A stretch of 64,000 nt of DNA from Schmidtea nova (GCA_044892505.1 CM097884.1:115382001-115446000); one strand, 5' to 3'. Shown: positions 5,901 through 46,600, counted from the first letter of the stretch. Program-made: numbers and translations. The notes: generated by a model not told the origin, from the sequence alone.

Positions 5901-6639
5901 TAAAATACTCGGGGGCCCGCAAAAATTGCGTCCCGCAATTTCTCAGAGGGGTTAAGAACCAAGACTAATCAAAGGTCAAAAGGTTGTACATTATACACGA
6001 GCTACTTGGTCGTGATCATGCCGTTCGCGACAATAAAAATAAAAAGTTTAAAAAAAAAATTAATAAAATTATACATATACACAAATATGAGTCTACATCG
6101 ACTCGTAAGCAAAAAAATTAAATGTAATATATGTGCCTACAGCGGCTAATCAAAGTTCAATATGAGTCTACAACGACTCGGATAAAAGTTTTACCAAGTT
6201 TATTAAGTTTGTTGAATTATCAAATTCATTATTGAATTGGTTGGATCTTCGACTGGAATAGTTTGAATGACTCGGTATTGATCAATGGTTTCTTGTCATC
6301 TTCTCTTCGGGATTTCAAATGATTCTTTATTACATTGTTGATTTGGGTTTAATTGGCCTGATTTCTGGGTTTCTTTGAGATGACAATAAATTGTTGTGAT
6401 CATGGTGATTAGAAAAACTTCTCGGTACGATTTCATTGTTGATTTTTGTGTTTCCAATAGAAGAAAATTGAATAATGACGATAAATAATTTTTGCTATTT
6501 ACACGGGCGTTACGATTTTTTAAGCAGGGTTATGATTCAATGATGATGAAATATTGTTCAAGATGAGAATACAAATAAATAGATAGATTAAATGAATGGA
6601 AGAAAATACATGAATTGTCAAAAAGGGGATCGAATCGTA

Positions 6640-7464
6640 TTATTGTTTATAGAAGTAATTCATCTGCACCGAGGTTGTAGCTGTCTCAGGATTAGGCTGT
6701 TCTGGAACTGGATCTTCAAATATTGATCTTAGAAAATTCTCTGACGGGTTGTTGTCTTCATGGGTGATTCGCTTGATGGTATTCAGCTGGATTTTTGCTT
6801 TCTCTAATTTCATTTTTTCTAATCCGATTGATACAACAATGCTAAGGATCATTATGACCGCGAAAAGACTGATGCCTTGTAGAACGACTGTGATGGCTGC
6901 TTCTCGGTCCCTGACGTCTTCGTTTGTTGATCCTTGTTTAGGGATAATCTCCTTTTGCTTTTCGGGTAATATCAATTGTTTCATAATTCTCTCGGTCTGA
7001 TGAAGTTGACTTTTCAGTTTTTGATTTAACTCTTCTGTAAAACTTGATCTTTCCTCATTAACTTCATCTTTATTATTTAGAGATTTTTCTATTAACTTGC
7101 TCAATTTCTTTAGTTCGGTCGTTAACTGTTTGAAGGATGATTGGTTTTCGAGCTGTTTCTTTAGTTGAAGATTGTTTCTTTTGGTTAAGGAGATTTGTAA
7201 TTGGATTAATTGTTGAGTTTCATTTCTCAATTGTTTAAGGATGGTGATTGAATCTTCTCTGAGTTTAGGACATTGTTGACATTGTAATTGTATCTGTTGA
7301 CACTCCTCATTTCTGGTGCTACAAATTCCTTGATAGCTTACGCAAATGCTATCGGATCTTCTAAATGGATGGCTTGCTTGACATTGACTCAATGCTTCTT
7401 CGCTTCGGCAGTTTGTAATTATAAATATCATGATGGTTGTCGTGATCTTCATTAGATTGCTCAT
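6640..7464 (-). CDS. 274-aa predicted type I membrane protein (env position)
   Basis: N-terminal hydrophobic leader, Cys cluster, long coiled coil, TM-like ITVVLQGISLFAVIMILSIVVSIGL, ~55-aa tail; last ORF before the 3' LTR. Confidence 0.75.
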   Translation of the reverse strand: MSNLMKITTTIMIFIITNCRSEEALSQCQASHPFRRSDSICVSYQGICSTRNEECQQIQLQCQQCPKLREDSITILKQLRNETQQLIQLQISLTKRNNLQLKKQLENQSSFKQLTTELKKLSKLIEKSLNNKDEVNEERSSFTEELNQKLKSQLHQTERIMKQLILPEKQKEIIPKQGSTNEDVRDREAAITVVLQGISLFAVIMILSIVVSIGLEKMKLEKAKIQLNTIKRITHEDNNPSENFLRSIFEDPVPEQPNPETATTSVQMNYFYKQ

Positions 7465-7559
7465 TTTCTATAGATTTATAGATTCAAATTGGTTTAATGA
7501 TTTTTCAAATTTTCTCTTTTATATCTTTACAGGGATATTTACATGAGTTTATATATATT

Positions 7560-8135
7560 TTATTCTTTCCTCTCTTCATTTAGCTTTAACGGACTTTCTG
7601 GCTTCCAGTTTCCCATTCTTGCAATCTCGTCTGCTTCTTTTCGCCTTTGTTCTTTGAGGACGTAATTTTCTGCCGTTTTGATTTCTACAACTTTCTTTGC
7701 TTTGAATGTATCAAATTTTGCTTCTATGATTTCACTTTTCAACTTTATTATCTGTTTTTCTCTTTTGATAATCTTCTTCTGTTTGCTCTTCAATGATCGT
7801 TGTAATGACTCGATCTTAATTCTCCTTTTATTATCAGTGTTCTGTTCACTGCTTATTTCCCTTTTGAGTCTGTCAATCTCTTGCTTCTGTCTGTCGCAAT
7901 ATTTTTGAGTGAGACCATTTTGTTGGCGAAATAGATAATTTTCTCGCTTGATTATTTCCATCGTCTCGCACTCTTGCTCCATTTGTGCGATATATTTTCT
8001 ATCTTTGCTCACTACTTCCTTCAATTGGTCTATTTGGTCTTGATAATATTGCTCTGTTGCTCTTTTCCATTTTTTGAATCTTTCTTTTGATATCGTTTGT
8101 TGTTCTGGTTCTGATCTTTGCTTCAATAGTCTCAT
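7560..8135 (-). CDS. 191-aa basic coiled-coil orphan protein
   Basis: Intact ORF with the same cassette layout as its neighbours. Confidence 0.72.
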   Translation of the reverse strand: MRLLKQRSEPEQQTISKERFKKWKRATEQYYQDQIDQLKEVVSKDRKYIAQMEQECETMEIIKRENYLFRQQNGLTQKYCDRQKQEIDRLKREISSEQNTDNKRRIKIESLQRSLKSKQKKIIKREKQIIKLKSEIIEAKFDTFKAKKVVEIKTAENYVLKEQRRKEADEIARMGNWKPESPLKLNEERKE

Positions 8136-8397
8136 TTTCTATAATTTGAATTTTCATAACTCTTTTCTACAGTTTTATTAATTTTGTTTTTGTTTTTATC
8201 ATTTTTATCATTTTTATCATTTTCTAATTTTTATTTGTTTTTCATTTTTTCTAATTTTGATTGAATTTTTATTTTTTCTGCTTTTTATTTAATTTTTTGG
8301 ATATATTTTACAACTTTTCTTTTTACATTTCTTTACAACGTTTTCTTTTTACACTACATTTCAATTTCTTTTTACACTTTACATTCACTTTTATTAT

Positions 8398-9945
8398 TTA
8401 TACAAACGTCTCTTCAATTTCTCCGAACCCTTCGTCTTCGATTTGAGGATTTTCTTGCTCCAAATGTACAGGTTGTATTGGTGTTGGATATAGTGGCCAT
8501 AGAATTATTGGAGGTTGATTTTGTAGGCTCTGAACTCTTTCTCGCAAAGTTCTTGAGATTTCCATCTCTTCATCTAGCAAATATGTCATATAATCGAGTT
8601 CTTCACACAGCTGTTCCTTTTCTATCTCGAGCTCTCTCGTATTTTCCATATTTTTCAACCTTTCAATTTCTCTTTCATAGTTTTGGCGATTTTCTTCCAA
8701 ACTTTGGATAGCCATTTCAATCTCATACTGCGATTGCTGGATCGCTTTCTCACATTCGGCCTTTGTTTCTTCTATCTGCCGTCGCTGGTGTTGAATGACA
8801 ATGTCTTTATGCGTATTTGTTCCTCGATATCCGTTGACTTCACGGTTTGCAATAGTCAATTCGATTGTCAATTCTTCAATACTTCTATCATCCATATTCT
8901 TCTGTTGATCATATTGCCTATTTTCAAATTCCAGATATTTGATACGAGCTTCTTGATTCCTGGTGAATTTCATTCTCCTTTGATTCCATTCAGTTTTTAA
9001 TTGAACTTGCCTTCTTAATTCTTTGTTTTCTATCTCTTGCTTTTCTGCATTTTCCCACAATTCTGCTTCATTTATTGACATCAGCTTCTTTGGGAATTCT
9101 CGTAGTTCGTCTCGAGTTCTTTTCCAGGTCTTTTTCCATGTTCTGGCTTGTTCTATTAGCCACTTTATTTGATGCTTTGTGCTTCTTTCTCTGAACTGTC
9201 CGCTCGTTTTCAACTGGAATATTTCTTTTCTGAGTTTCTCCGTTTCCTCATGACGTATGTCTGCATACCAATGACATTCCTCTTTCAGAGCCTCGATTTG
9301 AACGTCTCTCCGTCTTAGTAATTCTTCGTGTAGCATTTTTCTGTGTCGAGCCATTTCCAATAAATCTTGGTGTTCTTGTTTCCATTTCCTAGCCTCTGCT
9401 TTAACCTTTCTAATGATCTTTTCTTGTTCGCTTTCAGGCTGGATTTCTCTCGTTCTCGTTTTAGGTTTCTTTTGAGGTTGTCCTCTCAAGGCAAATGCTT
9501 CATCTCGACACTTTTCCCATTTCTTTTTCATGGCTTCATATCTATTTCTTTCACTTTCTAGTTGCTGCTGATAGAATCTTATGGAGTTGTCATACCTTGT
9601 TTCGGTATCTCTTTTATAGGTTTCGAGCTCATCTTTTCTCAATCTTGCTTGATTTTTCAACGGTACCGACTTTCGTTGTTCGTGCTCGAGTTTTCTCTCC
9701 ATTTCTCTGTACTCTCGTTTATAATTGTCTAGTTCAGCTTCGATATGTGCCTTGTCGTTTATTAGCTTTCGCAATTCCTCGTTTTCCTCTTTTATTTTGT
9801 TGATCTCTTGGGTTCGTTTTTCAATCAATTTAACGTTCTCTTGGATGGCTTCCATTCTTTGTTCATAGCTTCTCATTTGATTTAGTTGTTCTTGTCTTTT
9901 GGCCATCTCCTGATCTAGGATGTCTATCAATTGTTGTATATTCAT
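8398..9945 (-). CDS. 515-aa long coiled-coil orphan protein
   Basis: Uninterrupted E/K/R/Q-rich heptad-like ORF with a Pro-rich acidic tail. Confidence 0.8.
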   Translation of the reverse strand: MNIQQLIDILDQEMAKRQEQLNQMRSYEQRMEAIQENVKLIEKRTQEINKIKEENEELRKLINDKAHIEAELDNYKREYREMERKLEHEQRKSVPLKNQARLRKDELETYKRDTETRYDNSIRFYQQQLESERNRYEAMKKKWEKCRDEAFALRGQPQKKPKTRTREIQPESEQEKIIRKVKAEARKWKQEHQDLLEMARHRKMLHEELLRRRDVQIEALKEECHWYADIRHEETEKLRKEIFQLKTSGQFRERSTKHQIKWLIEQARTWKKTWKRTRDELREFPKKLMSINEAELWENAEKQEIENKELRRQVQLKTEWNQRRMKFTRNQEARIKYLEFENRQYDQQKNMDDRSIEELTIELTIANREVNGYRGTNTHKDIVIQHQRRQIEETKAECEKAIQQSQYEIEMAIQSLEENRQNYEREIERLKNMENTRELEIEKEQLCEELDYMTYLLDEEMEISRTLRERVQSLQNQPPIILWPLYPTPIQPVHLEQENPQIEDEGFGEIEETFV

Positions 9946-10079
9946 TCTGAAATAATAATAACATGGGTAATTTCCTTTTGTTTATACATTTTTTGTTGCT
10001 CATGCTTATAAAATAATACTTGTATACATCGATTGAAATTAAAATCTTTACAATTTATTTACAAAGTTGTTTGATTGGA

Positions 10080-11249
10080 TTATTGGTCGGCATAACGGAA
10101 TCCCTTGATCCGTTTGTCGACCGGTTTCCTGCACATTGAGCACAATCTCAATTTATTGCTACAATTTCCACAAGCTAACAGATGTCCACACGGTAAATGA
10201 ATAACTTCTACTTTCTTTATCCAACAGATTGAACAGGGGTGTTTATTTAATATAACTTTCTTGATACATGATTCTGGGTTGACAACTTGGGATTTCCTGG
10301 TGAACTGTATTATAGCTTTGAAAAATTCTAGGGTTGATCCAAATGTTTCTCCATTTCTTCTCAATCTCTCTCTGATAACTTCTTTCACAAATATTTCGCT
10401 TTTGCCGGTACGTTCCATTGCCTTTTGAGTTCGTGGTTCGTCTAATATCTTATCTACTAATAATTCATTAACAGGCATCTCTGGGTTTTTATAATTGATC
10501 GGTTCTTCGTCTTCATATAATTCTTCTCCATATTTACAATATTCGTTGTGTTTCAGGTATTCTCCTTCTTCTTTTGGTAATTGATATTGTATTCCACACT
10601 CTGAACATTCAGCGGTTGATTCATTTATTGCATAAAAACCTTCTATTGCTAATCTGATACCCATCTTTTTATCTGCAAAGGTGTCAGTTCTCCCATTAAT
10701 CGTATATTTTGGATCAATTTCTATAAATCGTATCTTTGCTGGGCCTGTTGAAGTTATCGTTACTATTTTGGGTTTTTCTTCTTCATAATTGTTCATTGTT
10801 GCTGGTTTTCTTGGTTTTTCGCATGCCTTTAACACAAACTGGCACGTGGGTGAAAGTTTTCTATGTTCTGTTAGTGGATCATCGTTAATTCTCCAAGGTT
10901 CTATTTCAATTCTGCAAAATACACAAGTTACTTTATCGGGTTTCTCGATTGTCCCTGCAAAATACAAACCATCTTTGGCGAATTTTCTGTATTGCTTTTC
11001 ATAGAAATTGTCTTGTTGTAAAAAGGTTATATATCTTCGGTTCTCATTTTTCAACGTTTCATCGATAGTTTTGAATTTGCCATAATTTCTTTCCTTGGGA
11101 ACATTCGATATTGTTCGTGTAAATTGACAATAAATCAATTCTGAGGTAATTGGTTTTGACATCTTTTCTTTACCTCTTTTCATTAATTCGCATAAACTTT
11201 TGAATGATCTGTCATCTTCTCGTACTTTCACGATCTTCCTTTCAGTCAT
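10080..11249 (-). CDS. Inhibitor of apoptosis (BIR, degenerate BIR, UBA-like, RING)
   Basis: Canonical BIR DKVTCVFC...W...DDPLTEHRKLSPTCQFV; second BIR-like RTDTF...GFY...CSEC; C-terminal RING CSIC...LPCGHLLACGNC...CSMC. Confidence 0.93.
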   Translation of the reverse strand: MTERKIVKVREDDRSFKSLCELMKRGKEKMSKPITSELIYCQFTRTISNVPKERNYGKFKTIDETLKNENRRYITFLQQDNFYEKQYRKFAKDGLYFAGTIEKPDKVTCVFCRIEIEPWRINDDPLTEHRKLSPTCQFVLKACEKPRKPATMNNYEEEKPKIVTITSTGPAKIRFIEIDPKYTINGRTDTFADKKMGIRLAIEGFYAINESTAECSECGIQYQLPKEEGEYLKHNEYCKYGEELYEDEEPINYKNPEMPVNELLVDKILDEPRTQKAMERTGKSEIFVKEVIRERLRRNGETFGSTLEFFKAIIQFTRKSQVVNPESCIKKVILNKHPCSICWIKKVEVIHLPCGHLLACGNCSNKLRLCSMCRKPVDKRIKGFRYADQ

Positions 11250-11473
11250 TGTATCTACAATATTTTCTCCGTTATATTTTCACAATTTTTGTTTTCTATA
11301 TTTACAAAATTTTGATTTTTCTCATTTTTATATTTGATTTTTCGGTTTTTTCTCATTTTTATATTTCTTTTTGATTTTTATATTTTTTTGTGATTTTCTA
11401 ATTTTATTTTGTACATTATTATACAGATACTTTATTATAATACAGACATATTTACACTTTCTTTTCATCTTCA

Positions 11474-12877
11474 CTACGGCTTTCTTACTTCGATAATCAG
11501 ATACAGGATATTATTTACCAAATATAATGATTGTTCTGTGGTTAAATAATGTAATGCAATAAAACGTGGATTTCCTACAGCTACGTTGTAGTCTTCGATC
11601 GGCTTCCTATAAGCTGCTTCTACCTTCTTCAAGTTTGGTCTGAATACTTCCCGAACGTTGTTTTCCTTTGTTCCGATCATCATAGTTATATCGCAATCGT
11701 AGGGCCATTCTAACCAATCGTCATAATCTCCTTTACATATTTGAAAATATACAGATAAATGAGTTCCGGCTCCTAGTCCGTCTCCCGTTAGATATACTTT
11801 GAATCTAAGCTTGTAACCATGTTTCCAACTGTGACAAGGTGGACTTGTCCATACACGTTGACCTCCTTCTCTTGCTAGTCTCAATTTCTCTGTAAATTCT
11901 GTGATTTTCCAATAGTAGGGTGTGACGGGTAGTTCTTCCATTGTTGGCAATATGCTTTCCAATCTTTGTTGGATTGTTGATATTTCTGCTATTTTCTGGT
12001 CTAATAGTATCATTTTTTGGATCATTTGTTCTCTTATTCTTTCAAAATTTCCTCTCGTATCCAAAATCTCTTGTATCATGATTTTGTGAGATTTTATTTC
12101 TGTGTTGGCTTCTCCAATTACCAGTGCGGTTGCTCCAATAGCTTCCACAACGGTTCTCAAATGATTTACACTATTTTCATCTACATGCTTTTGTATTTCC
12201 TCTTTTGGTAATCTCACTTTGCAATTGAATAATTTTAGTGGACATGCAGTAGGCTTCTTTTCGCATATTTCCCAATGTTCTTTTAGCTTCACGTTTTCTG
12301 CCATTCCACATTGATTACAATTACCTTCATACTCGTCACATACTTGCCCTTCTTCTATATTCCAATGCTCATCTTTTAACACTATCCAAGCGTCTGTTTC
12401 GTTGCAAAACTCACATATTTCCTGTCGTTGTTCACACATTTCCTCATGACTGTCTTTGACTTTCTTCAACATTTCTTCTTCACACCACTTGCATTTGGCT
12501 TTCGTATCATCACAATTATAAAGGTGTTTGGCGATCCATTTTATTGGCCCACTCCATACACATGGTTTATTTGGACAGGTTGTTGCTGCGTTCATTATTT
12601 CCCGATTCATTGCGATATCTGGTCTGGTTTGGTCAAATTGGTCTATTATTGCTTCACCACATTCAGGACATAGCTTCTGTTTTGTTCGTATTATTTTCAT
12701 CACGCAATTAGTGCATATTCGACATCCACATTCAGTTTGTCTGGGTTCTATCAATAAATTTCTACATACTTTACATTTAAATCTTTCTTGAAATTCTGTT
12801 GGTTCTATCCGTTGTCTCTGTAGTATCTGATATAGTTCGATCAATTCCTCTTGTTTCTGCTGATTCTCGGTCTGCAT
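11474..12877 (-). CDS. TNF receptor-associated factor (TRAF2/3/5-like): RING, TRAF zinc fingers, coiled coil, MATH
   Basis: RING CKVC...ECGCRICTNC...CPEC; several Zn fingers; MATH signature GYKLRFKVYLTGDGLGAGTHLSVYFQICKGDYDDWLEWP. The ORF is open from 12937; probable ATG 12877. Confidence 0.95.
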   Translation of the reverse strand: MQTENQQKQEELIELYQILQRQRIEPTEFQERFKCKVCRNLLIEPRQTECGCRICTNCVMKIIRTKQKLCPECGEAIIDQFDQTRPDIAMNREIMNAATTCPNKPCVWSGPIKWIAKHLYNCDDTKAKCKWCEEEMLKKVKDSHEEMCEQRQEICEFCNETDAWIVLKDEHWNIEEGQVCDEYEGNCNQCGMAENVKLKEHWEICEKKPTACPLKLFNCKVRLPKEEIQKHVDENSVNHLRTVVEAIGATALVIGEANTEIKSHKIMIQEILDTRGNFERIREQMIQKMILLDQKIAEISTIQQRLESILPTMEELPVTPYYWKITEFTEKLRLAREGGQRVWTSPPCHSWKHGYKLRFKVYLTGDGLGAGTHLSVYFQICKGDYDDWLEWPYDCDITMMIGTKENNVREVFRPNLKKVEAAYRKPIEDYNVAVGNPRFIALHYLTTEQSLYLVNNILYLIIEVRKP

Positions 12878-12971
12878 TCTAAAATAATTTATAATTTTTT
12901 CGTTTTGCTTTTTATACCAAGTTTTATTCATATTCACATTTTTACATTTTATTTACACTGGTTTTAAATTT

Positions 12972-13607
12972 TTATAATAGTTCATCCCTTCCCGTCGAGT
13001 CAGGTTCTCGAACCGATTCTGGAAAATTGTCTAACCAGTTATACCATGCTCTGACTTCTTCTCGCGTCTCATTCAATCTTCTAATTTCGTTTGTTTGCCA
13101 CTCCGTATGTCTTGTTAACCATTCAATTCTCTGGTCCTTTTGGATTATCATTTGTTGTTGTTCTTCCATTTTAGCAAGATATAATAAATTTCTGTTTACA
13201 CTTTCTGTTAACAAAGCTTGTTCGTTTTTCCATTGTGCATAGGCTTGATTCAACATCCTGCTTATTAATTCACATTGCGTTTTCCATGATAACTCTTGCG
13301 TCATTGTCTGCTGATAAACCATCGGAGCTGATATTGATTGAGTCTGGCTATTTGTTGGTTGTTGATTTAATACGAATGTCGTTTGAATTGGGTTCATGGT
13401 TTCATCAAATAGTGGAATTTCGACTTGGTATATCAGGTTTCTATCATCAATTGTTGGATTTTGCGTTTCATTTTCGATTACTGGGGTTTGCAGTGACCCT
13501 TCTCTTTCTCGTATATTGGTATCTTCTGGAAACTGAGTTTGATTTGATGGTTCATTGAACGTTGGAACTGATGTTTGATAACTTTGATTCTCGTTGTTCG
13601 AATTCAT
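12972..13607 (-). CDS. ~211-aa orphan: N/Q/T-rich N-terminus plus C-terminal coiled coil
   Basis: Intact ORF co-oriented with the other cargo genes and with similar A-rich composition; no family recognised. Confidence 0.7.
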   Translation of the reverse strand: MNSNNENQSYQTSVPTFNEPSNQTQFPEDTNIREREGSLQTPVIENETQNPTIDDRNLIYQVEIPLFDETMNPIQTTFVLNQQPTNSQTQSISAPMVYQQTMTQELSWKTQCELISRMLNQAYAQWKNEQALLTESVNRNLLYLAKMEEQQQMIIQKDQRIEWLTRHTEWQTNEIRRLNETREEVRAWYNWLDNFPESVREPDSTGRDELL

Positions 13608-13758
13608 TTCTGTCAATAATTACACAATATTATCATTTGTTTTTCCCAGTTTTGAGGTATTCATTTTTTTGGATTTTTAAATTTTTATTATACTAATATA
13701 TTCTACTTTTATAATACAATATAATTTTATACACTATATACACTGTTCCTTCCACTGG

Positions 13759-16700
13759 TTACTCTGACAACTTGCGTTTCGACGACATCCTGATGTTCTC
13801 ATCTGGCTCGTCGGTTAATATGACTTTTATGTCTTCTTGGGTGACTTTTGAACCATTATGTGCTACTATCTGGCATACGAGTGTTCTAAACATTTCTTGT
13901 GATGCTTTCTTTTTGTAAACACAGATTTTATATTTTGTTTCTCGTTTTAATCCATTTATTCGGATTTCTCCTCCTTCTGCTCGTTGACATTTGACTGGAT
14001 TATCTCCTTTAATTTGCAATTTGCCTCTACTCCAACATGCTTCTTCATTATCTGCTCCTTGTATTAATATTTGTACTGGTTTTCTTTTGTCATCAGCTTC
14101 CGTTCCTTTCAATGCTGACAGCATCAATATCAGTAATATTATGTCTTTTATTCGAGTTTTATGTAGACATGCTGTTCGATTTTCATAATTTGAAGTTTCT
14201 TGCTTGGGTTCATCACTTTTGTTCCCAATTTCATCGTTATTGCTGTTTCCATCATCTTTCTCGTCTTTGTCATTGTTTCTGTTGATACTTTCATTGTCAT
14301 CTTTCTTTGTTTTGTTGTTATTATTCTCTTCATCTTCATCGTCAGGCTCATTGTGATCATCAGAACCACCCTCGGTTCCGATTAAAATGTCGTCCTCGAC
14401 ATTTATTAATTTTATTATTTCCTCATATCTTTTAGCTATTTCGTCTGCTTCGGCTTTTATATTTGCTCTCTTGGTTATTTCATCTTTGACGTTGTTCCAG
14501 CTTCGGTGAATTCTGCTTTCTTTTATATTTTCTTTCCATATGATAACTTGCTGATATAATTCCTGTCTTTTAGCTCCAATTCTTTCTTTTTCTTTTTTGT
14601 TGTTCGTAAACCTGAAATCAGGTCTTTGCAGCAATGCTTTAATCGTTTTATACATTTTCCATTTTCTTTTCATGGCTCTTTTCATTATCATATTTTCACC
14701 GTCTTCAAATCTGTCATTGACATTTATCACTCCTTCGTGCGTAACTGGATGTAACCATTTAATCATTTTTGCTGTTGTTTCGTCGGCATCTTTGTTCACT
14801 GCATTTACTAATGGATTTGGATCTGAACTGAGTACTTCAATATCTTCCTCTGTGGCATTTGACATAATATATTTGATTATTTGATGGTTATTTGCTTGCA
14901 CTGCATAAGATAACACCGTTTCATTTTTATCATCTCTTTCTTTAAAACTTGATCCGGTTCTCATCAGTTCTGCTATGAGTTTCTTGGATCCTCCTTTTTC
15001 AATTGCTACCATCAAGGGTGTTTGATCTTTCCAGTTTTTCGTGTTGGTATGTTGTTTACACTTTTCCATGAGTTTTATGATTTCAAACATTCTCTGTTCA
15101 TTCCCACTTTTTATTGCGTGGTATAATGGTATCTCATCTTTAAAACTGGCAATTGTAAGTAATATTGGTAATCTTTCTTTTATGGTATTCATCGCTTCTG
15201 TCGTTTCATTTCCTTTGGCATATTCCTCAACCATTAAGCTTACTCCTCCCAATATTTCAAATAGATTTTTACTTTTTGACCATTCTGGCATAATTTCTTT
15301 GGTAATCTCAATGATCAATTCCATCTTTTTGCGGTGCTCCATTTTTACATCGTCAACTACCTTAGGTTGTTCAGATATTGTTGTTGGCTGATTTACTTTT
15401 CTGCTCGTAGTTAATATACGATGTAGCCAATCGTCATTTTTATTCTCTCGAAACATATATACTTGTCCTTTTCTGGTTGTTTCTGGATTTGATTGTTCTA
15501 TCATTGTTTCTCTTGTGCAATTCTCTTCAATTTGGTGTTTCAACTTCATCGTATTCAAATCAATTACAGATCCTTTTAACAGTTTTGGTATTAAGTCTGT
15601 TCCAATAATGCATGAGGTACCCAGTTGTTTTATTACTGTCAAATAAGTTGATATTTTTATTTTCCTGTATTCGATGTTCGTCCATATTTTTCCAACGATA
15701 TTGACAGATTCTTTGCTGCATGTTATTACGTCTACTGATGTTTTCTCGATGCATAACCGTAACAATTCTGGTATCATATCGATATCTATTGCTGATATAT
15801 TTGCGCCAGTATCTATCATCGCGTCTACTTTTACGCCATTAACTTCGATGTTAATTGTAAGTGTTGGTCCAGCTGGAGTTTTCATCATTGCAATTATCGT
15901 TGTTTCGGGATTATCTTCACCTCTCGCTTTTCTGGTCAACTCGCTTCCTGCAATTTTATCAATAGTTAATTTATTACTTGTTTCGATTTGTATCGGGGCT
16001 ACACCGATTTCTATATCATCATCCAGCGATTCTCCATCATATTTCAAGTGAAATGGTAAATTGAATGGTAATCTCTCTTTTATCTCTTTGATCTTTGTTG
16101 TTAATGATACATTCATCTTTATTTCTTCTAGACTCGGAAACTGAATTTTCAATCTGCACATCTGTGGATCATCGTTTGTTTGTTCCAGTTGTTTCCATTT
16201 TCTCATGATGTCATCAAATTGTGTTGAATACCAAGGGCATAAACGTCTGCATTTCTCGATTTCTCTCACTATCAATCTCATGTTTGATATATTTGCACTA
16301 TTTTTTATAACCCATTTTAGTAATTCAGTTGTTGTTTCATATTGTTTTCCTGCACTCTTGCTTAGGTTACTGATTAATCGTTCGGTCTTTGACGTTTCCG
16401 TTTGTCTTGATCTCTCGAGCTTCGCTGATTTCCTCTTTTCCTCCGACTTCTGATTCATTTTCGTCATTTCTTCTATGGTAATGGTTAACAATCTTTGTGC
16501 CACTTCTTCTAATTTGATTGTCGTAGATTCATTCCATTTCTCGTCCATGCTACATGTGTCATCATCGCTTCTTCTTTCTCTTCTTTTTCGGTTATATTTC
16601 TCCACAAACTTCTTCTTTTCTTCTCCCTCCATATCTTTTACTGAAAATTCATATACATTTCCCTTTCTTTCAATTTCAACGTCTGGTAATTCGGCTATCA

Positions 16701-16869
16701 TTTCATTTACTTTTTCTTCGATATTCTGTTGTAGTTGCATTTTCATTGTTATTACTTCTTTTTCTTCTTCCTGCAAATTATCTTCTACATTTGAACTGGT
16801 TATTTTCTGCTCTTCTTTTAATAAATTATCTTCTGAGTTTGTACTGGTAACTTTCTGATTTTCCTCCAT
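13759..16869 (-). CDS. ~1,036-aa polyprotein: charged N-terminus, ubiquitin-like segment, retropepsin (DTG), ankyrin repeats, acidic linker, internal hydrophobic signal-like stretch
   Basis: VNGVKVDAMIDTGANISAI (DTG at 15805-15813) and IIGTDL flap/C-terminal motif; ankyrin-like PLYHAIKSGN, QTPLMVAIEKG, ETVLSYAVQANN; IILLILMLSAL near 14100-14146. The ORF track starts at TTG 16881; the first ATG is 16869. Confidence 0.8.
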   Translation of the reverse strand: MEENQKVTSTNSEDNLLKEEQKITSSNVEDNLQEEEKEVITMKMQLQQNIEEKVNEMIAELPDVEIERKGNVYEFSVKDMEGEEKKKFVEKYNRKRRERRSDDDTCSMDEKWNESTTIKLEEVAQRLLTITIEEMTKMNQKSEEKRKSAKLERSRQTETSKTERLISNLSKSAGKQYETTTELLKWVIKNSANISNMRLIVREIEKCRRLCPWYSTQFDDIMRKWKQLEQTNDDPQMCRLKIQFPSLEEIKMNVSLTTKIKEIKERLPFNLPFHLKYDGESLDDDIEIGVAPIQIETSNKLTIDKIAGSELTRKARGEDNPETTIIAMMKTPAGPTLTINIEVNGVKVDAMIDTGANISAIDIDMIPELLRLCIEKTSVDVITCSKESVNIVGKIWTNIEYRKIKISTYLTVIKQLGTSCIIGTDLIPKLLKGSVIDLNTMKLKHQIEENCTRETMIEQSNPETTRKGQVYMFRENKNDDWLHRILTTSRKVNQPTTISEQPKVVDDVKMEHRKKMELIIEITKEIMPEWSKSKNLFEILGGVSLMVEEYAKGNETTEAMNTIKERLPILLTIASFKDEIPLYHAIKSGNEQRMFEIIKLMEKCKQHTNTKNWKDQTPLMVAIEKGGSKKLIAELMRTGSSFKERDDKNETVLSYAVQANNHQIIKYIMSNATEEDIEVLSSDPNPLVNAVNKDADETTAKMIKWLHPVTHEGVINVNDRFEDGENMIMKRAMKRKWKMYKTIKALLQRPDFRFTNNKKEKERIGAKRQELYQQVIIWKENIKESRIHRSWNNVKDEITKRANIKAEADEIAKRYEEIIKLINVEDDILIGTEGGSDDHNEPDDEDEENNNNKTKKDDNESINRNNDKDEKDDGNSNNDEIGNKSDEPKQETSNYENRTACLHKTRIKDIILLILMLSALKGTEADDKRKPVQILIQGADNEEACWSRGKLQIKGDNPVKCQRAEGGEIRINGLKRETKYKICVYKKKASQEMFRTLVCQIVAHNGSKVTQEDIKVILTDEPDENIRMSSKRKLSE

Positions 16870-17637
16870 TTCTTTCTGCAAATCGGCTACAAACTTTCTA
16901 ATATTGTGGATTTTACTTCTTTATTTATCAGCTTTATTTCTTTTTAATTTCCTTTCGTCGTTTTTAATAGATTTGACTCTTTATCTTTCGACTTTACGAA
17001 CTTGGTTGGTTTGGTAATATTGTCAATTTGTGTTTAATATCGATTGCTGATCTTTCTTTTATCTTCAATTGGATCTTCTTTGATTTATTTTCTTTTACTT
17101 CTTTCCTTTTCAATTAGACTTCTTTTCTTCTTTTCTTCTATATATACCTCTTCAATAACTGATTGATTCGACTATCTCTTGGCTTGGCTTTGATCTGTTG
17201 GACAATCTAAATAAAAATATCGCTTCTTCATCGACGCCATTTACCCCCCTTTTATTCTGAGCTCAGATTTTAAATTATCTATATCTCGTAATAATTATCT
17301 ATATGGTCGTATCAGTTATCTATACCCTGATAATAATAATAATAATAGTAACAATAATAATAATATTACTAATACTATAATAACAGTATGATCATACTCA
17401 TCTCGGCATTTGAGGAAAAAATGTCTTGTTCGTTATCTATTCATGGCCATTATTTTATTTCCTAAGTATTTCTCGATGTCTTTTATCTGCTCTTATTAAC
17501 GGTTTGTATTACTACACCTTAAGTATTCGCGTTCAATGTTTTTCTCTGTCATAACAAAATTTTTTCTGCGCAGTTTTATTTAATTCTATCTCTCAAACGT
17601 TTTTCCTAAATTTCTCAACAATATCCATAAACATTGG

Positions 17638-18132
17638 ACTCTCAAAGTCTCTCACATACATGAACTCTCAAAGTTTCTCAATTATCTGGACTCTCAAAGT
17701 CTCTCATACATGAACTCTCAAAGTTTCTCAATTATCTGGACTCTCAAAGTCTCTCATACATGAACTCTCAAAGTTTCTCAATTATCTGGACTCTCAAAGT
17801 CTCTCAATTATCTGGACTCTCAAAGTCTCTCCCAGAGCGCTCAATTATCTGGACTCTCAAAGTCTCTAAATTACCTGGACTCTCAAAGTCTCTCAATTAT
17901 CTGGACTCTCAAAGTCTCTCAATTATCTGGACTCTCAAAGTCTCTCAATTATCTGGACTCTCAAAGTCTCTCAATTATCTGGACTCTCAAAGTCTCTCAC
18001 ATACATGAACTCTCAAAGTTTCTCAATTATCTGGACTCTCAAAGTCTCTCACATACATGAACTCTCAAAGTTTCTCAATTATCTGGACTCTCAAAGTCTC
18101 TCACATACATGAACTCTCAAAGTTTCTCAATT
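17638..18132. repeat. Tandem array of about 19 units of ~26 bp (ACTCTCAAAGTYTCTCA...)
   Basis: Units end in either ATTATCTGG or (CA)TACATGA and alternate A/B over part of the array; there are no unique spacers. Confidence 0.95.
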
Positions 18133-19192
18133 TTTCTCGGCCGTCTTCGATTATTCTCTTTATACTATTTAATCACTCGCTTTCCTATTCTCGATTTTTA
18201 ATTTTTCACAAATAAATTCGCTGTTACTGACTGGTTTTCTCAAATTGTTCTACTACTTCTCAATTACGAATCAATTCCCTAACTACCATGGTAGAATCTT
18301 TTCTTATTATACTATCATCTACTATAATCATCGAAATTCACTTTTTACTCTTTCGACTTTCTAAAATCTGCATCTGATTTTCTCAGCAACTTTCTCTTTA
18401 CTCATGTTACTGCCTTCTACCTCAGTGTACCAATCATGCCTTGGCAAACTGGTGTATAAGACGAACATTACGGGTTTAGCCCTTTCACCTAATTCAAAAT
18501 CGTAAAATAATCGCGTCAACTTGTTTCGCAATTTGTGATGATCAGTCACAAACGAAATTTATCGACATTTGCGATGGTTAACCTATTCTACTTTTTTCTC
18601 TTCAGGATAATCAAGTTTTTCCCATTTATTACAAACTATCTTTTGTCACAAAAAAAATTGGCGTACTATCTTTTGATAGCTCTATTAAAATTTGGCGTAC
18701 TATCTTTTGATAGCTCAGTTATGAATTTGTGGATTATTTTCTCGTTTCTACTCAGACACTCATTTCTCACTGTATTTCGGAAGGTTTCCTTATAAAATCA
18801 ACTCCTATAACGCTACTTATTGCTCGTCCTAATACATACATATTCATATATATAATGATCAGTATAATAATGATAATCAATATAATAATGGTAATAAGGA
18901 AGATTTATAGTAATAAAATTCGGATCATTATAATACTGATGATGAGGAAGATTTATAATAATAATAATAATAAAGGAAATTCAAAAAGAAAAGAAAAGTA
19001 ACTTTGTCACAAATTCCCATTTTCCTAATGTTTGATTTTTCGGCATTAGCCGTTACTTGTTATGTTTTTTACACGACTCTCAATCATTAATTACCTAGTG
19101 TTCTGTGTTTATTTAATTTTTACGACGATTTGGAGTACTGGATGATCGACGATGTTCAACACGACTAAAACATTTATTTCGAACGACATTCT

Positions 19193-19675
19193 TCACGAAC
19201 AAAATACCATGATTTTGTCATCAATTGTCTGTTTGCAGATTACGCATCTCTTTATTTCTCTAGAACACGGCTGGCAATAACACAAATGTCCGCATGGCAT
19301 GAATAAAATGTTCGCTTCTTTTTGTCGACAAATATAACATCTTTCGAACGAATCGATCTGTTGATTTATCGATTTCTCTAGCTTGTCCATGATTTTATCG
19401 ATTTTACCAATCCATTCTTGTATTTTCAGATTAAAATTCGGATTATTCAGTCGCAATCGTTGTAATTCGTAAATTGTTTCTAACGAAATATCGTTTGTTG
19501 TTCCTACAACTCCTGCAATCACTATTAGATTCTCAGGTTGTGGTCTAGGATTCAACAATAATTCATCTTTTATTCCATTTACTCGTTCGAGTTTCTCGCT
19601 CAACACCTGCAATGGGTCATCTTTAAAATCGAAAAACAACTCGATTCGTAGTAAAATATGCTCAATCGATTCCAT
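19193..19675 (-). CDS. 160-aa protein with C-terminal C3HC4 RING finger (IAP/MYLIP-like E3 ligase type)
   Basis: CYIC...PCGHLCYCQPC...CVIC motif near the C-terminus; intact ORF with TTTTAG directly before the ATG. Confidence 0.85.
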   Translation of the reverse strand: MESIEHILLRIELFFDFKDDPLQVLSEKLERVNGIKDELLLNPRPQPENLIVIAGVVGTTNDISLETIYELQRLRLNNPNFNLKIQEWIGKIDKIMDKLEKSINQQIDSFERCYICRQKEANILFMPCGHLCYCQPCSREIKRCVICKQTIDDKIMVFCS

Positions 19676-22221: not shown

Positions 22222-22239
22222 ATCCCGGCTGAGCCCCCA
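22222..22239 (-). promoter_or_regulatory. Primer-binding site, tRNA-Pro type
   Basis: Minus strand reads TGGGGGCTCAGCCGGGAT, 16/18 identical to the MLV tRNA-Pro PBS TGGGGGCTCGTCCGGGAT; 10 nt inside the 5' LTR. Confidence 0.88.
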
Positions 22240-22249
22240 AATTTTTATA

Positions 22250-25200
22250 TGGTGGGTTGTTGACCGTCAATATGACCTTGACGTTTCTATGGCTCTCATC
22301 AACAACCCAACACATAAAATGTTGAAATTACCACCTTGTTACCCGTCACTATGTAACGTTGGTACTGTAACAAGTGGGTGGGTATTCGCAATCAGTGAGC
22401 GTCGTCAATACGAAACTATGATTGACCGAATATCTCCTGGGTCCAAGGGCTACCGATAGAAGGTTTCTTGCCCATTTTGTCCCTTCTTCGACGATTTATC
22501 TATAAGCTTTCAATAAAAATTTTCATCGGAAATTCAACATAAACACTCTGCATAACTATAAATTCATTAATACATCCAAATAAATTATTCCGAGCATCAA
22601 AACACTAATATAACCCTATATTTTACCAATATTGCATTTTATGATAATTAATACATAAAATTTTATATTTTTATAGAAAAATTTTGATCTGCAATTGAAA
22701 TTTAAGAAAAATTTTTAATTATTACCGTAATTTAATCCAGTTTAGAAATAATAAAAATAAAATTTCCGTTTGTTTAAAATTGCTAATTTAATCAAAAGGA
22801 CAAATTTACTCAATTTAAAAGTTATATTAATTTTAAAGGTAATTTTATGAATTTTTCGCTAAATTGATAAATTAACTATTTCTATAGTGCAGATCTACAA
22901 GAAATGGACCTTTCCAGAAACTACGAAGCCAGAGGAAAATTCTCCCACCCCAAACGGGTCAATCCGATTAGAACTCGAGCTCCTATGAAGCAAAATAGCC
23001 CGCTCTACCAACCAAGTAAAATTTTGATTATTTCAGAATTATAATTTATTTTGATCAATTTTAGAAAATTTCTTGAAGAGAATATGTGGGAAATGGCCCT
23101 TCAAGTACTACAAACCAAAAAAATTCTTGCCGGGGACTCTTATCCCTCAAACTGAATTTTTATTAATAAATCTTTAAAAAAAAAAAATCTTTTCGTTTTT
23201 ACTCTTTTTCGTTTGAGTTTTTATTATTTTTATTAAAAATAAACTGTAATGTAAATGGCCTATTTGGCTGGGTATATACAATTTTATATGGTAGGTTTGA
23301 ATAATAGAAATTTTTGTATGGTTTTTCTGGATGTATGTTGCCGACTAACATAACTGTGTAGAATTTTCAGTATTGTTTGCTTGTGTGTATATAACTATTG
23401 AATGCTAATAAATGATACGGTGTATGTGTGTATATTGTATTTTAAGTATACGTTGCTTGTGTATTAGCATGGGAAATGTTATTGAATGAAATGGATGTAA
23501 TTTTTTGCAAATAGGGATGCATTATGATTTTTGAGATATCGTGGGGGTATTTATAATATATATATATATAAATTATATAAAATATTTTTTTCAAAATTAA
23601 AATAATAATAATAATTTTTATATTAAAATAATAATAATAATTTTTATAATACTTTTATAAATTTTAGATTTATAATTTTACGAAAATAATACCATAATAA
23701 AATTTCCAATTTTTATATTATAAATTTTTATAATACTTTTTATAAATTTTACATTTATAATTTTGTAAAAATATAATAATAAACTTTCTAATTTTTACAA
23801 TACACATTTTCCTAATACTTTTTATAAATTTTAGATTTATAATTTTATGAAAATAATATAATAATAAAATTTCTAATTTTTATAATACATATTTTTATAA
23901 TACTTTTTATAAAAATTTTTTAATTTATAATTTTATGAAAGTAATATAATAATAAAATTTCAATCTATAAATTTTATGGGGTTTAATATAAATTTTGATT
24001 TTTCAAATTCTCGGGAATTTTATGAAATGATAAAATCTTTTATATATTAATAATATTAGGAACCAAATTTGGTTTACAATTTTTTCCATATAAAATCTTT
24101 TCAACATAATAAAAAGCAAATTTTTACTTCTGATCCAAATGAAATGATAATAAATTTTTATCCATAAGTTCCGAAATCTAAATAAGCATTTAATCAAAAA
24201 AAAATTTTTATAGGCTAAATAAAGATAAAATAAAAATAAGTTATAAATTTTTCAACGAATGTTTTTAATATCAAGTAAAGTAAATTTCGGTTTTGTTGAG
24301 CATGAATTTCCCAATCAAAGTGTACGCGAATTTTTCGGGACACTTCACTTAGAAATTTCAGGCTCTCGAAAAACAAGATTCACAGGAAAACTTATTTAGA
24401 CCATAATGAGCTTTAATTCAGATTAAATCAATACTTGTTTCACAATTTATTTCACTTCATGAGCATTATTCTAGACTTGAGCATTATTTCGAACAATTTT
24501 CTTTTCATCATCAGCATCCATTTTTCTTGCATTTTCTTATGAGATGAACGTTGTTGAGAGTGTGAAGGTGAAGGTGAGTACGAGTCGATTTTTTAATCAA
24601 TAATATTTCCTATTTTAGATTTCAAGACATGAGGTAGAAATTATTATGTTGTATTACGAAATTGCTTATGTAGATAATAAAAATATGATACTCTATTATA
24701 ATACAAATCATTAGTATAACAAAACCTTGCTCTTGGCCAAACCGCGGTTCCCCAGTTGGGATGACGCGAATTTGGATGTATGAGCCTCACCTTAAAGTGG
24801 AAATATGGGCTGGCCGATTACCAATCAGACAACGATCCACCCAGGCTACTAACAGATCCGCACAACTAAGGCTGGACGGATCGTCAGAAGATATGGGAGA
24901 TAAAAAAAAAATTTTTATTCATTTTTCTAATTTTATTTAATTTGCTACTTGAAATAAAAACTTTTTGAGTGTATTGGGAATTTGTAACAAACAAAAGTTT
25001 TTCAAGAAAAATTGAGAATAAACTAATCATTAAATATTTTAATAACATTATAATAAAAATACATGATCAATAAAATAATAAATAACATATTAAATAAAGG
25101 AGAGGAATGGGATGATCGTCAGGCATGATAGACGACCATTCCAATCCCCAATGAGAATAACCAAAATCAAACAAATCCTTACGTTCCAAGCTCGAATTTT

Positions 25201-26127
25201 CTCAGATTTGTAACAATACGGCTTCCAGACGTTCGTAAAGGATTCGTAGTGTCTCCAAAAATCTTCCCGAATCAAATTGGCAAAATTATTAAATTTGAAA
25301 TTCTTTCCCACAAACTCTTGTAGCAAAATCTTTCAAAAAGAATTCTAAATTCTTGGCAGCAAAATTTTTCAAAAGAGTTCTAAATTCTTGGCAGCAAAAT
25401 CTTTCAAAAGGATTCTTTTCTTTTCGGAAAAATTTTCACAAATTTTCACCAGATTCTGAGTTAGCAAAATAAAAGAAATAAGAATTTTTCCACACCAATC
25501 TGAGATCTGCCATTTTGATGGCGGTATATATACCATCAAATTTTCTCTATCTCCGGTAGTGCAATAAAACAAATTGTTCTAGAATTTTCTCTTAATTTTT
25601 TCTAAATTAATTCTAATGATTTTCCGAAAATTAATTCCATATTTTTGTATAATAATTTTTTATAAACTCTAAATAATTTATTTTAATTAAAAATTTTTAT
25701 GTTTGAATCGAAATTTGTTCGATTTGATTTAATTTATGATTTTCGATCCATATTAATTCTTTCTATTGTTAAATGTGAAATTTTGTGATAAATTCACAAT
25801 TTTCTTCTAAAATTTTGTTAATTTTTCTGCACTGAAGATTTTATGACAAAATTCTGTTCCTTATGGGCACTCTCCATGGGTTTTTTGCCTATTCTAGCTT
25901 CCAAACATTCTGCTTTTAATTTTTCTCGCGATTTCAGTGAAAATATTTATAAATTCGCAGTTAGCGCGCATTCTACCGGTTGATGTGTTTTGATTTATCT
26001 TCACCTTTTGGTGTTTTCCACTTAATTGTTGGATTTTCAATGGAAGCTAAGGTTAAAATGGAATCTTGCGCGTTCTCTACCTATGGGGTTATCGCTTTAT
26101 TAAAACACATTGCGTTTTGGCCCAACA
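22250..26127 (-). repeat. 5' LTR (3,878 bp)
   Basis: Near-identical to 2023-5900; followed on the minus strand by a 10-nt spacer and the PBS; imperfect terminal inverted repeat TGTTGGG/TGGTGGG. Confidence 0.92.
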
Positions 26128-26131
26128 ATTG

Positions 26132-43605: not shown

Positions 43606-46600
43606 ATGGCATCGAACCAAGCAAACCCAAACACTTCACAAACACCCACGGAGAACGAAAATGCACAATCCCAACACCAAAACAACAATTATTATTACAA
43701 CCCCGAAAACACACACACCATAAACTCTGTAATTAACCCGAAACCTAACCTACCAAACTACTTTACCGATGAAAACGGCACTCCACAAAAATGGCTGGAA
43801 TTTGCCAAATTAGCACTAACGCTTTCCGGAGTTAAATCAACAAAGTCCCTATGCTCTAACATCATAGCAGCACTCCTTAGCAACAAATTAAACGAAATCG
43901 CGGATTAAATTGAAAAAATTTCTAAGGATGACGACCCCTTTAACAAACTGTGCAACATCCTTAAGAACAAAAATAAAATAAACAGACGGCAAATGCTTGA
44001 ATCTTGCCTCAACAACACCCAGTTAGGGGAAAACAAACCCACTGATTTCCTCAGGCAATTAAAGCAAAAATGAGAATATCTCCAACCTAAGATCACAAAT
44101 TCAGGCTCCAACGAACTAGTAAAAAATCTTTCTTGCGAGCAATGCCACCAGAAATCACTGTCCTCATTCTGGCAGCCAGCAATAACGCCGACGTTGAAAC
44201 ACTTGCCGATATAGCGGATAAGATCAACGAAGAAATTTATCCGACTATATGCAGCACCCAAAACTACAACAAAAACAAAACTAACTACAATAATCAACCA
44301 AACAACAAATATAACGAAACAAATGACAACATGAAACAACTACTAAACACCCTTATCGGCGAATTCAACGAAATCATAGTCGAAAACAAACAAATAAAAA
44401 CTGAACTAGCCGAAATAAAAGAACGATGTAACAAAAAAATTTTTAACTCAAACCAATCAAACGATAGTTACTACAGATACAACTACAACAGAGACCACCC
44501 ATCAGACGGTTAAAACAGACAAAGCTACAATCAACCTCCAGAATACAACAGACAAAACTACAGCCGCAGTCAATCACCAAACAACAATTACAGAAATCGG
44601 TCAAACTCCCCAAATCGAGGCAACAATTACCGAAACAAAAGCCCAGAAAGAGATCCAAGAAATAATTACTTAAACAAAAACCTCTGCTATTTTCACAACA
44701 AATTCGGGATAAAGCATTCAAATGCGTACAACCCTGCGAAATAATTAAAACAGAGCAAGGAAACCAATAAGGTCACCAATGATAGCACCTACATCAGGTG
44801 ACAAAAATAACACATTTTAAGTGCACACAAACAACATAGATTTTTTAATAGACACCGGCTCGGTGATTTCATTACTGCCCAATTCCATGTATAAAAGTGC
44901 CAACAAAACAGAAAAACCAATAACAGCAGCTAACGGCACAAACATAAAACTTTCGGGCAACAAACAATAAATTTAAACATAAATAAAAAAAAACTACAAC
45001 TGGACATTCACCATAGCTGAGGTCCAACAAGCAATAATAGAAGCAGACTTCTTAACAAATTACAACCTCCTAGTGGATTGTAAAAACAAACAAATAATAG
45101 AAAATACTAATACTACAACACCACAGCACAACACTAGCAATGGAGGAAAACAAAAAATAGACATTGGTGTTATACAGATGGATCCAATAAACTACAAATC
45201 AAAACAAAAACTGAATCATGAACCAGAAATAAATAAACTACTGGGAAAATTCGAAAAACTCATCGAACCAGTAACCTTCGACAAAAACGCGGATCACTCA
45301 ACCGAACATGCAATTTTAACAAACGGAAACCCAGTGCATAAAAAGGTGAGACAACTAGATCCACAAAAATCAAAAATTACAAACAAAATTTTCAAGGAGT
45401 TACTAGAAAACAAAATAGTAACTCACTCCAACTCCGATTGGTCCTCCTCACTCGTGCTCAAACAAAAGACAAAGAGGAATGGAGAGCTTGTGGTGACTAC
45501 CGAATGCTCAACAAAATCACAGAACCAGACAACTACCCACTGCCTATCATCAGAGACATAATAAACAGACTAAAAGGTGCAAGACTATTCTCAAAAATAG
45601 ATTTACAGAAGGCTTATCATCAAATACCCACCTGGAACGAAGACATTAAAAAAACAGCAATCGTAACACCTATCGGCATGTTCGAATACAACAGAATACC
45701 ATTTGGCTTGTGAAACGCAGCTGCAACATTTCAACGATTTATGGACAAGACGCTGAAAAATAACCAGAACACTATAGCTTATTTGGACGACATCCTCATA
45801 GCAAGTCCAAACAAAACCATTCATTTAAAAGACATCGAAAAGTTGTTTGAAACGCTGAACTCAGCAAATCTCAAAATAAACATTCAAAAATGCGAATTCT
45901 TGAAAAAGGAAATTAATTTTCTTGGACACACACTAGATGAAAAAGGCACAAAGCCAATAGACAAGAAAATAAGTACAATACAAGAGTTTAAATTGCCAAA
46001 CACAAACAGAGAGTTAAGACGATTTTTGGGAATGGTAAACTTTTACCATGCTTACATCCCAAACTGCAGCGAACTGTTAGCTCCATTAAACGACCTGATC
46101 AAAACAAGAAGAAATATTAAAATAAACTGGACCGAACAAACAACCAAACAGTTTGAAAAAGCAAAAACAAGCTTATCTCAAGCAACACTACTCGGATATC
46201 CAAATCCAGAACTAGACTACAACCTAGCAACAGACTGCTCTGGATATGCAATGGGCGCAACCTTATATCAAGATAACGAATACGGCAAACAACCAATCGG
46301 GTTTTTCTCAAAAAAACTAAAAATACATCAAACACGGTACTCAACTTTCGATCGAGAACTACTCGTGATACATGAAGCCATCAAACACTTCCAGCACCTA
46401 CTGGAAGCAAGAAACTTCAAAATCTATACGGACCACAAACCGTTAACAAACGCGATACAAATGAAAAACCCATCACCACGGCAAATAAGACAATTAAATT
46501 ATATATCAAAATTTAATTGCACAATTAATTATATAGCCGGAGTCGCAAAGATTGCAGCAGATACCCTTTCAAGAATAGGAACAGATATAAATGCACTCGA

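Follow-up and report, generated by a model that had tools for sequence, protein, structure and literature searches.

An abundant LTR element of Schmidtea nova with a deleted Burro-type ORF1, no Gag, Env, RT or integrase, and probable mobilisation by a complete partner

Non-autonomous LTR elements are expected to retain merely their ends or Gag. In the Ddi1/DDI2 architecture, a ubiquitin-like domain (UBL) lies N-terminal to a D[ST]G retropepsin, an order that the ORF studied here shares. The closest described relatives of its element are the giant Gypsy elements Burro1/GYPSM1. Their ORF1 is given in print as 4,873 and 5,140 aa, with a SUMO-like domain (PF11976) after MATH (PMC6431247, available part). 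Going by that published build, Burro1/GYPSM1 resembles our element and its complete partner in its 4-kb LTRs, in a partner ORF1 of ~5,000 aa with Gag-CCHC, MATH and SUMO-like PF11976, in an Env in frame ahead of PR, RT-RH-IN and ankyrins, and in BIR, RING and coiled-coil accessory parts (PMC6431247). The B-IAP of Burro1, a BIR-RING protein, is reported to guard stem cells against death mediated by caspases (Lee et al. 2026, summarised in the available part of PMC13465017); by domain build, it compares with a BIR and RING gene within the element described here. The wheat pair RLG_Cereba/RLG_Quinta offers a second likeness, with an old non-autonomous derivative, a shared primer-binding site (PBS) and LTR termini, and an intact ORF; a contribution of Quinta to the partnership with Cereba has been proposed (PMC11302176, available part). 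Quinta retains Gag, whereas our element drops Gag and retains a protease and host-directed accessory genes.

We analysed a 64,000-nucleotide stretch of the AT-rich, 1.25-Gb genome of Schmidtea nova (hereafter the window). A 1,036-aa ORF lies there in a 24.1-kb LTR element (2023-26127), which has the length above 20 kb and the long LTRs of Burro-type giant Gypsy elements. The element is laid out as follows.

26128..26131 and 2019-2022, no strand: 4-bp target-site duplication, ATTG
22250..26127, minus strand: 5' LTR, 3,878 bp, TG...CA, single mismatch against the 3' LTR
22223..22239, minus strand: primer-binding site, pairs with host tRNA-Pro(TGG), 10 nt past the LTR, identical in the partner
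19193..19675, minus strand: leader ORF, 160 aa, IAP-type RING without BIR, common to the partner (96% aa, one copy)
17635..18132, no strand: 26/52-bp tandem array in the leader, length differing from copy to copy
16876..16916, minus strand: 41-nt GT...AG mini-intron, ending 6 nt ahead of the ATG, precisely missing in 5/37 copies
13759..16869, minus strand: deleted Burro-type ORF1, 1,036 aa from the first ATG, open (ORF scan, Pfam, partner alignment)
12972..13607, minus strand: cargo ORF, 211 aa, no family (ORF scan, Pfam)
11474..12877, minus strand: intronless full TRAF with RING, zinc fingers and MATH (Pfam)
10080..11249, minus strand: intronless IAP with BIR and RING (Pfam)
8398..9945, minus strand: cargo ORF, 515 aa, coiled-coil-like by composition, no Pfam family
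7560..8135, minus strand: cargo ORF, 191 aa, coiled-coil-like, Pfam matches weak
6640..7464, minus strand: cargo ORF, 274 aa, one membrane helix
2023..5900, minus strand: 3' LTR, 3,878 bp

The insertion is young, with one mismatch between its LTRs. Pfam and an ORF scan found no Gag, Env, RT or integrase inside the 24.1 kb, and the BIR, RING, MATH, SUMO-like and ankyrin domains that characterise Burro elements as accessories are all present. The element is covered by three contig sets, all from one study. The tRNA-Pro(TGG) genes of the host form a 308-bp tandem array (L192:1501-2496), with 1,185 genome-wide matches at one mismatch. Outside the element, the plus strand holds a broken, unrelated Gypsy RT/RNase H (44983-47387).

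The 1,036-aa ORF is divided as follows.

16735..16736, minus strand: point at which Gag and three CCHC knuckles are missing; a remnant is kept here in copy L218
15928..16164, minus strand: ubiquitin/SUMO-like domain, aa 236-314, 65% identical to the partner's post-MATH UBL
15535..15894, minus strand: retropepsin, aa 326-445, DTG at 15805-15813
14590..15370, minus strand: ankyrin region with its Pfam core at 14854-15126; homolog of the tail that follows integrase in the partner
14095..14184, minus strand: internal signal-peptide-like segment, hydrophobic core 14110-14142; its homolog precedes the partner's FN3-TM protein
13870..14082, minus strand: one FN3-like repeat, lacking the membrane anchor and further repeats seen in the partner

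The preliminary description had named a UBL, an intact DTG protease and ankyrins in this order, followed by a signal-like segment and an FN3-like tail, and this observation stands. Pfam places a retroviral protease (RVP) at aa 339-430 (E 3.6e-5) and Ank_2 at aa 582-672 (E 4.4e-10), both above cut-off, and the DTG and GTDL of the protease are retained in 20/20 copies. The Rad60-SLD/SUMO-like match at aa 239-286 is below cut-off (E 0.022; E 5.9e-4 with the domain alone). A model of aa 232-316, built exclusively from 15 element-derived rows (mean pLDDT 58), bears out the proposed UBL fold: compared with VIA, it matched ubiquitin/SUMO folds in 50/50 rows listed (best Z 9.1, rmsd 1.9 over 70 residues), and with Foldseek such folds were again in the list, none with E <0.001. 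Conjugatable ubiquitin-like modifiers end in a C-terminal Gly-Gly after the fold; here Ala-Gly or Ser-Gly follows in 15/15 rows and Gly-Gly is absent. The ankyrin assignment leans on Pfam and homology because the single-sequence model of the whole protein has a pLDDT of 37. The hydrophobic stretch IILLILMLSAL (aa 910-920) proved signal-like, as proposed; its core of 11 residues is short of a 19-residue helix and is therefore predicted not to span the membrane, and it is broken in 2/19 copies. The FN3-like tail has no match of its own to Pfam fn3 but shows 30% identity to the partner's first repeat (E 2e-5), a later repeat of the partner matching fn3 slightly below cut-off.

A complete relative explains how this ORF arose. 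In a neighbouring relative, the integrase continues in frame into the same ankyrin block as in the window ORF, and a genome search with it gave 131 rows, 39 of them in frames of 4,986-5,006 codons. The ORF1 in these long frames, that of the complete partner, runs from Gag and CCHC through MATH to an Env-like fusion protein, with PR, RT, RNase H, IN, ANK and FN3 behind it. It has the build published for the single ~5,000-aa ORF1 of Burro-type giant Gypsy elements, the SUMO-like PF11976 past MATH included; the window element lacks such an ORF1. The window ORF consists of four blocks colinear with it at 42-60% identity (aa 45-143, 45%; aa 105-314, 44%; aa 311-460, 60%; aa 469-986, 42%). Compared with the partner, the ORF has lost Gag-NC, ~770 residues as far as MATH, ~1,150 residues that include Env and ~1,030 residues that include RT-RH-IN, along with the membrane anchor and the later FN3 repeats. 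The ORF had been described as a chimeric polyprotein; the colinearity of all four blocks speaks against a chimera of captured parts. In the complete partner, the UBL and the protease are ~1,150 residues apart, so the Ddi1-like adjacency results from the loss of the Env region. Likewise, the ankyrins, which had been placed "where RT should be", are the native tail behind the integrase and did not replace RT. The losses were stepwise, since the satellite copy L218 (2084-3355) retains a Gag remnant with three CCHC knuckles, 37% identical to the partner, exactly at 16735/16736; a smaller piece is kept in L216. By its sequence, the window element is a non-autonomous derivative of the Burro type rather than a complete member. 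With a probability of roughly 0.78, we read the ORF as an ORF1 with internal deletions, carried in high copy number by an LTR element (the satellite) without Gag, Env, RT or integrase that is likely mobilised by the complete Burro-type partner; the protease retained in the satellite ORF likely cuts the UBL, ankyrin and signal/FN3 modules apart. Two further observations concern these families. The partner holds a second ubiquitin-like-looking segment ahead of MATH (L116:3865-4179; weak Pfam matches), which the satellite has lost. In a second deletion family (L099:5763-9812), the leader is joined to the integrase end, followed by ankyrin, FN3 repeats and the membrane anchor, with a frame of ~1,350 codons in many rows.

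The satellite is the commoner of the two families. A 30-mer of its protease occurs 1,754 times in the genome and a 30-mer of the partner RT 251 times (each at ≤1 mismatch), or ~1,750 satellites against ~250 partners, ~7 per partner. A degenerate protease motif covering both families gave 2,104 matches, and the 100 of these that were listed fell into two letter classes with minor variants. Among the first 20 exact protease 30-mer matches by position (the position-ordered sample), RT/IN was absent from the 10-kb stretch in 20/20, the ORF was whole and open in 10/20, and TRAF and IAP were present in 14/20. A further 20 sites, picked out of the 100 listed motif matches for their absence from earlier lists, comprised 15 RT-less satellites and five partners, all five with Env-PR-RT-IN-ANK. 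RT was thus absent from 35/35 satellites sampled. A rare complete relative nearer to the satellite may exist, as 20 sites were opened among the 100 listed of 2,104 matches. In partners, the 3' LTR was reached 1.0-1.5 kb past ORF1 in 19/20 and the cargo row, TRAF and IAP included, was present in 0/20, so that it was seen on satellites exclusively. The family therefore differs from Burro1/GYPSM1 in lacking Gag, Env, RT and IN, in outnumbering the complete form and in its BIR-RING and full TRAF genes, absent from the sampled complete copies; its IAP, unlike B-IAP, was found on the enzyme-less family only. As a further difference, dUTPase-like and BCL2-like parts were not confirmed for the partner by Pfam. 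A one-off deletion join had been named as the finding that would undo the preliminary description; the joins do stem from deletion, yet they are old and amplified to ~1,750 copies.

Other elements surfaced in these searches. A giant family (L085-L087) encodes CCHC, BCL2-like, Env-like, PR, RT and IN parts in ~3,070 aa. This BCL2-bearing family was rejected as the helper: its proteins do not match the ORFs of the window, and 15 stretches from 3 copies gave no DNA match to either the 5' LTR or the internal part of the element. A dUTPase search of the genome found no copy of the element, and other elements took up the results of the searches for the integrase and SUMO-like families. Many rows of the SUMO-like search resemble L236, where long, variable frames join a near-canonical ubiquitin to HSP70-like and other fragments (names by eye).

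Several features link the satellite to the partner. The PBS, the LTR termini and the word ahead of the 3' LTR are the same in both; this word is GC-rich, and the corresponding stretch of the window (5901-5925) holds no purine-rich tract. With the same PBS and termini and no RT or IN, the satellite has the marks of a non-autonomous LTR partner by which Cereba and Quinta are paired (PMC11302176). Among eight elements, the 4-bp target-site duplication is exact in 5/5 satellites and 2/3 partners, the third partner having one mismatch, and the LTR pairs of four satellites and three partners are 99.8-100% alike over their aligned parts. At the DNA level, satellite and partner are 58-74% alike in coding parts and ~85-97% alike in LTR and leader. 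In a tree of the PBS-proximal part, satellites and partners are mixed: the family label needs 4 changes, and satellite L038 is sister to partner L175 (100/99, 0.4% apart). Partners form one group at the RING ORF and the 3' leader, so the exchange is limited to the PBS-proximal part. The likeness of the ends and the mixing of the leader would fit co-packaging with template switching. Satellite RNA would be co-packaged with partner RNA and mobilised in trans by the partner's enzymes, and template switching would keep the ends alike while the coding parts drift (dS 1.1-2.0).

The intron-less copies, together with an acceptor-like AG before all 8 ATGs, make it likely that spliced RNAs serve to express the ORFs. 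The loss of the mini-intron from 5/37 genomic copies is a record of spliced RNA that was reverse transcribed, and the five may share one event. A pyrimidine-AG stands ≤6 nt ahead of the ATG in 8/8 ORFs of window 6640-19675, against 67/385 in the background (p 8e-7). The six spacers of this part hold 26 TGTA words, against 4.2 in shuffles, and each has A[AT]TAAA. Window 6640-19675 is thus likely an operon-like row, resolved by splicing and internal polyadenylation, with ORFs expressed from spliced or separately processed RNAs. For the protein, the word [IV]-x-[MAV]-[MLFI] marks domain borders in the N-half of the partner (6 against 1.2 and 8 against 2.3 in shuffles), with no significant excess in the C-half; the word was defined after seeing the sequence, and in the window its shuffle P is 0.04 with one pattern and 0.40 with the other. 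Such cleavage-like words are retained where the protease begins and where it meets the ankyrin part, the second position corresponding to the integrase/ankyrin site of the partner, and the module release proposed earlier is therefore plausible. Self-cleavage would yield four products: a piece with helix and UBL, the protease, an ankyrin protein and a small FN3 piece that is either secreted or vestigial.

The ancestry of the protease bears on the suggestion that the ORF is a Ddi1-like enzyme, in which UBL and retropepsin act on ubiquitinated host proteins. The order of the two domains is that of Ddi1, although the UBL is internal here, their join is retained in every sampled copy, and the PDB sequences that match the protease best, though weakly (E 0.019), are Ddi1 domains. 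However, the protease shares 67% identity with the Gypsy protease of the partner (E 1e-62) and 21% with host Ddi1 (E 0.005), a family with one gene passing E 1e-9 (148 bits) among 150 scored candidates in the host. Its match to the Pfam Ddi1 family PF09668 reaches 23.8 bits, below the cut-off of 26. The phylogeny against Gypsy and Ddi1 proteases that the preliminary description had called for places it as sister to the partner (87/99), and a clade with Ddi1 is just rejected (p-AU 0.0475; 19 rows, long branches). The protease is, as its sequence indicates, the element lineage's own Gypsy protease, embedded in a polyprotein and brought next to the UBL by deletion. Furthermore, a cleavage-like word sits between UBL and protease, so the two would likely be separated. 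Kinship to Ddi1 is not borne out, and a Ddi1-like function is very improbable.

Selection bears on the two other alternatives to our reading of a retained, deleted ORF1. If the satellite were a pure parasite that needs its ends alone, its ORFs would be leftovers whose conservation is only apparent, most insertions stemming from a small number of young source copies. Of the sampled ORFs, half are indeed broken or partial, the 6/20 copies without TRAF and IAP spread anyway, and, in the position-ordered sample, constraint is not significant for the UBL (pN/pS 0.67, p 0.3) and the signal/FN3 tail (0.60, p 0.06). Against this, variants common to at least 2 RT-less copies of that sample show a synonymous excess, with shifted-frame controls of at least 0.9: pN/pS is 0.09 for ankyrin (9N/32S; p 1e-12), 0.19 for TRAF, 0.28 for IAP, 0.14 (long coil, p 7e-28), 0.12 and 0.17 for three further cargo ORFs, and 0.34 for the protease, a value biased low because the copies were found by an exact protease 30-mer. 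A set of 25 copies gave lower UBL and protease values; this sample is biased, having been chosen for open frames and protein likeness. In addition, dN/dS between satellite and partner is 0.14-0.41 at dS 1.1-2.0, and no complete donor was seen among the sites sampled. The ankyrin, protease, TRAF, IAP and coiled-coil ORFs are under purifying selection, and pure parasitism is improbable. Copies still making the accessory proteins would spread better, most likely via survival of the expressing cell or damped defences. A benefit one level up, with the family kept and tolerated as its IAP and TRAF protect host stem cells, is compatible with this explanation and differs in the level of selection. The reported protection by B-IAP favours it (PMC13465017, available part). 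So do the 1,295 first-look BIR candidates genome-wide, near the expected count of IAP-bearing satellites; of the 150 listed, most share the satellite's frame length of 399 codons. Against it, constraint is equally strong on the ankyrin and coil parts, for which no host role is known, and we regard host-level mutualism as possible but doubtful.

No named relative, and no named Burro sequence, came from the protein searches. They returned one weak ankyrin match and generic Gypsy polyproteins, the IAP search nothing at E 1e-12, and the helix+UBL search five matches, one polyubiquitin-like and four unrelated bacterial repeat proteins; Atlas matches were all below 0.9. In the literature covered, we found no account of a Burro family without Gag, Env and Pol; Grohme 2018, Lee 2026 and the supplements lay outside this scope and may describe deleted Burro families. 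Burro itself and all domain classes found here but FN3 are already known (PMC6431247, available part). New is an old, selected and dominant satellite family that holds anti-apoptotic cargo.

Together, the two families might, tentatively, form a two-part retroelement with a division of labour like that of a segmented virus. The rarer part would give capsid, envelope, RT and integrase, and the seven-fold commoner part nearly all BIR-RING, full TRAF and much ankyrin, self-processed and from an operon-like row; host anti-apoptotic protection would then ride on the enzyme-less satellite. The satellite family makes up ~3% of the genome (a rough product of 1,750 copies and ~22 kb), and a non-autonomous LTR element here retains a protease and host-directed genes under selection. 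Given the reported protection of planarian stem cells by a Burro IAP, and with that gene found on the dependent partner only, a helper-satellite-host arrangement becomes testable.
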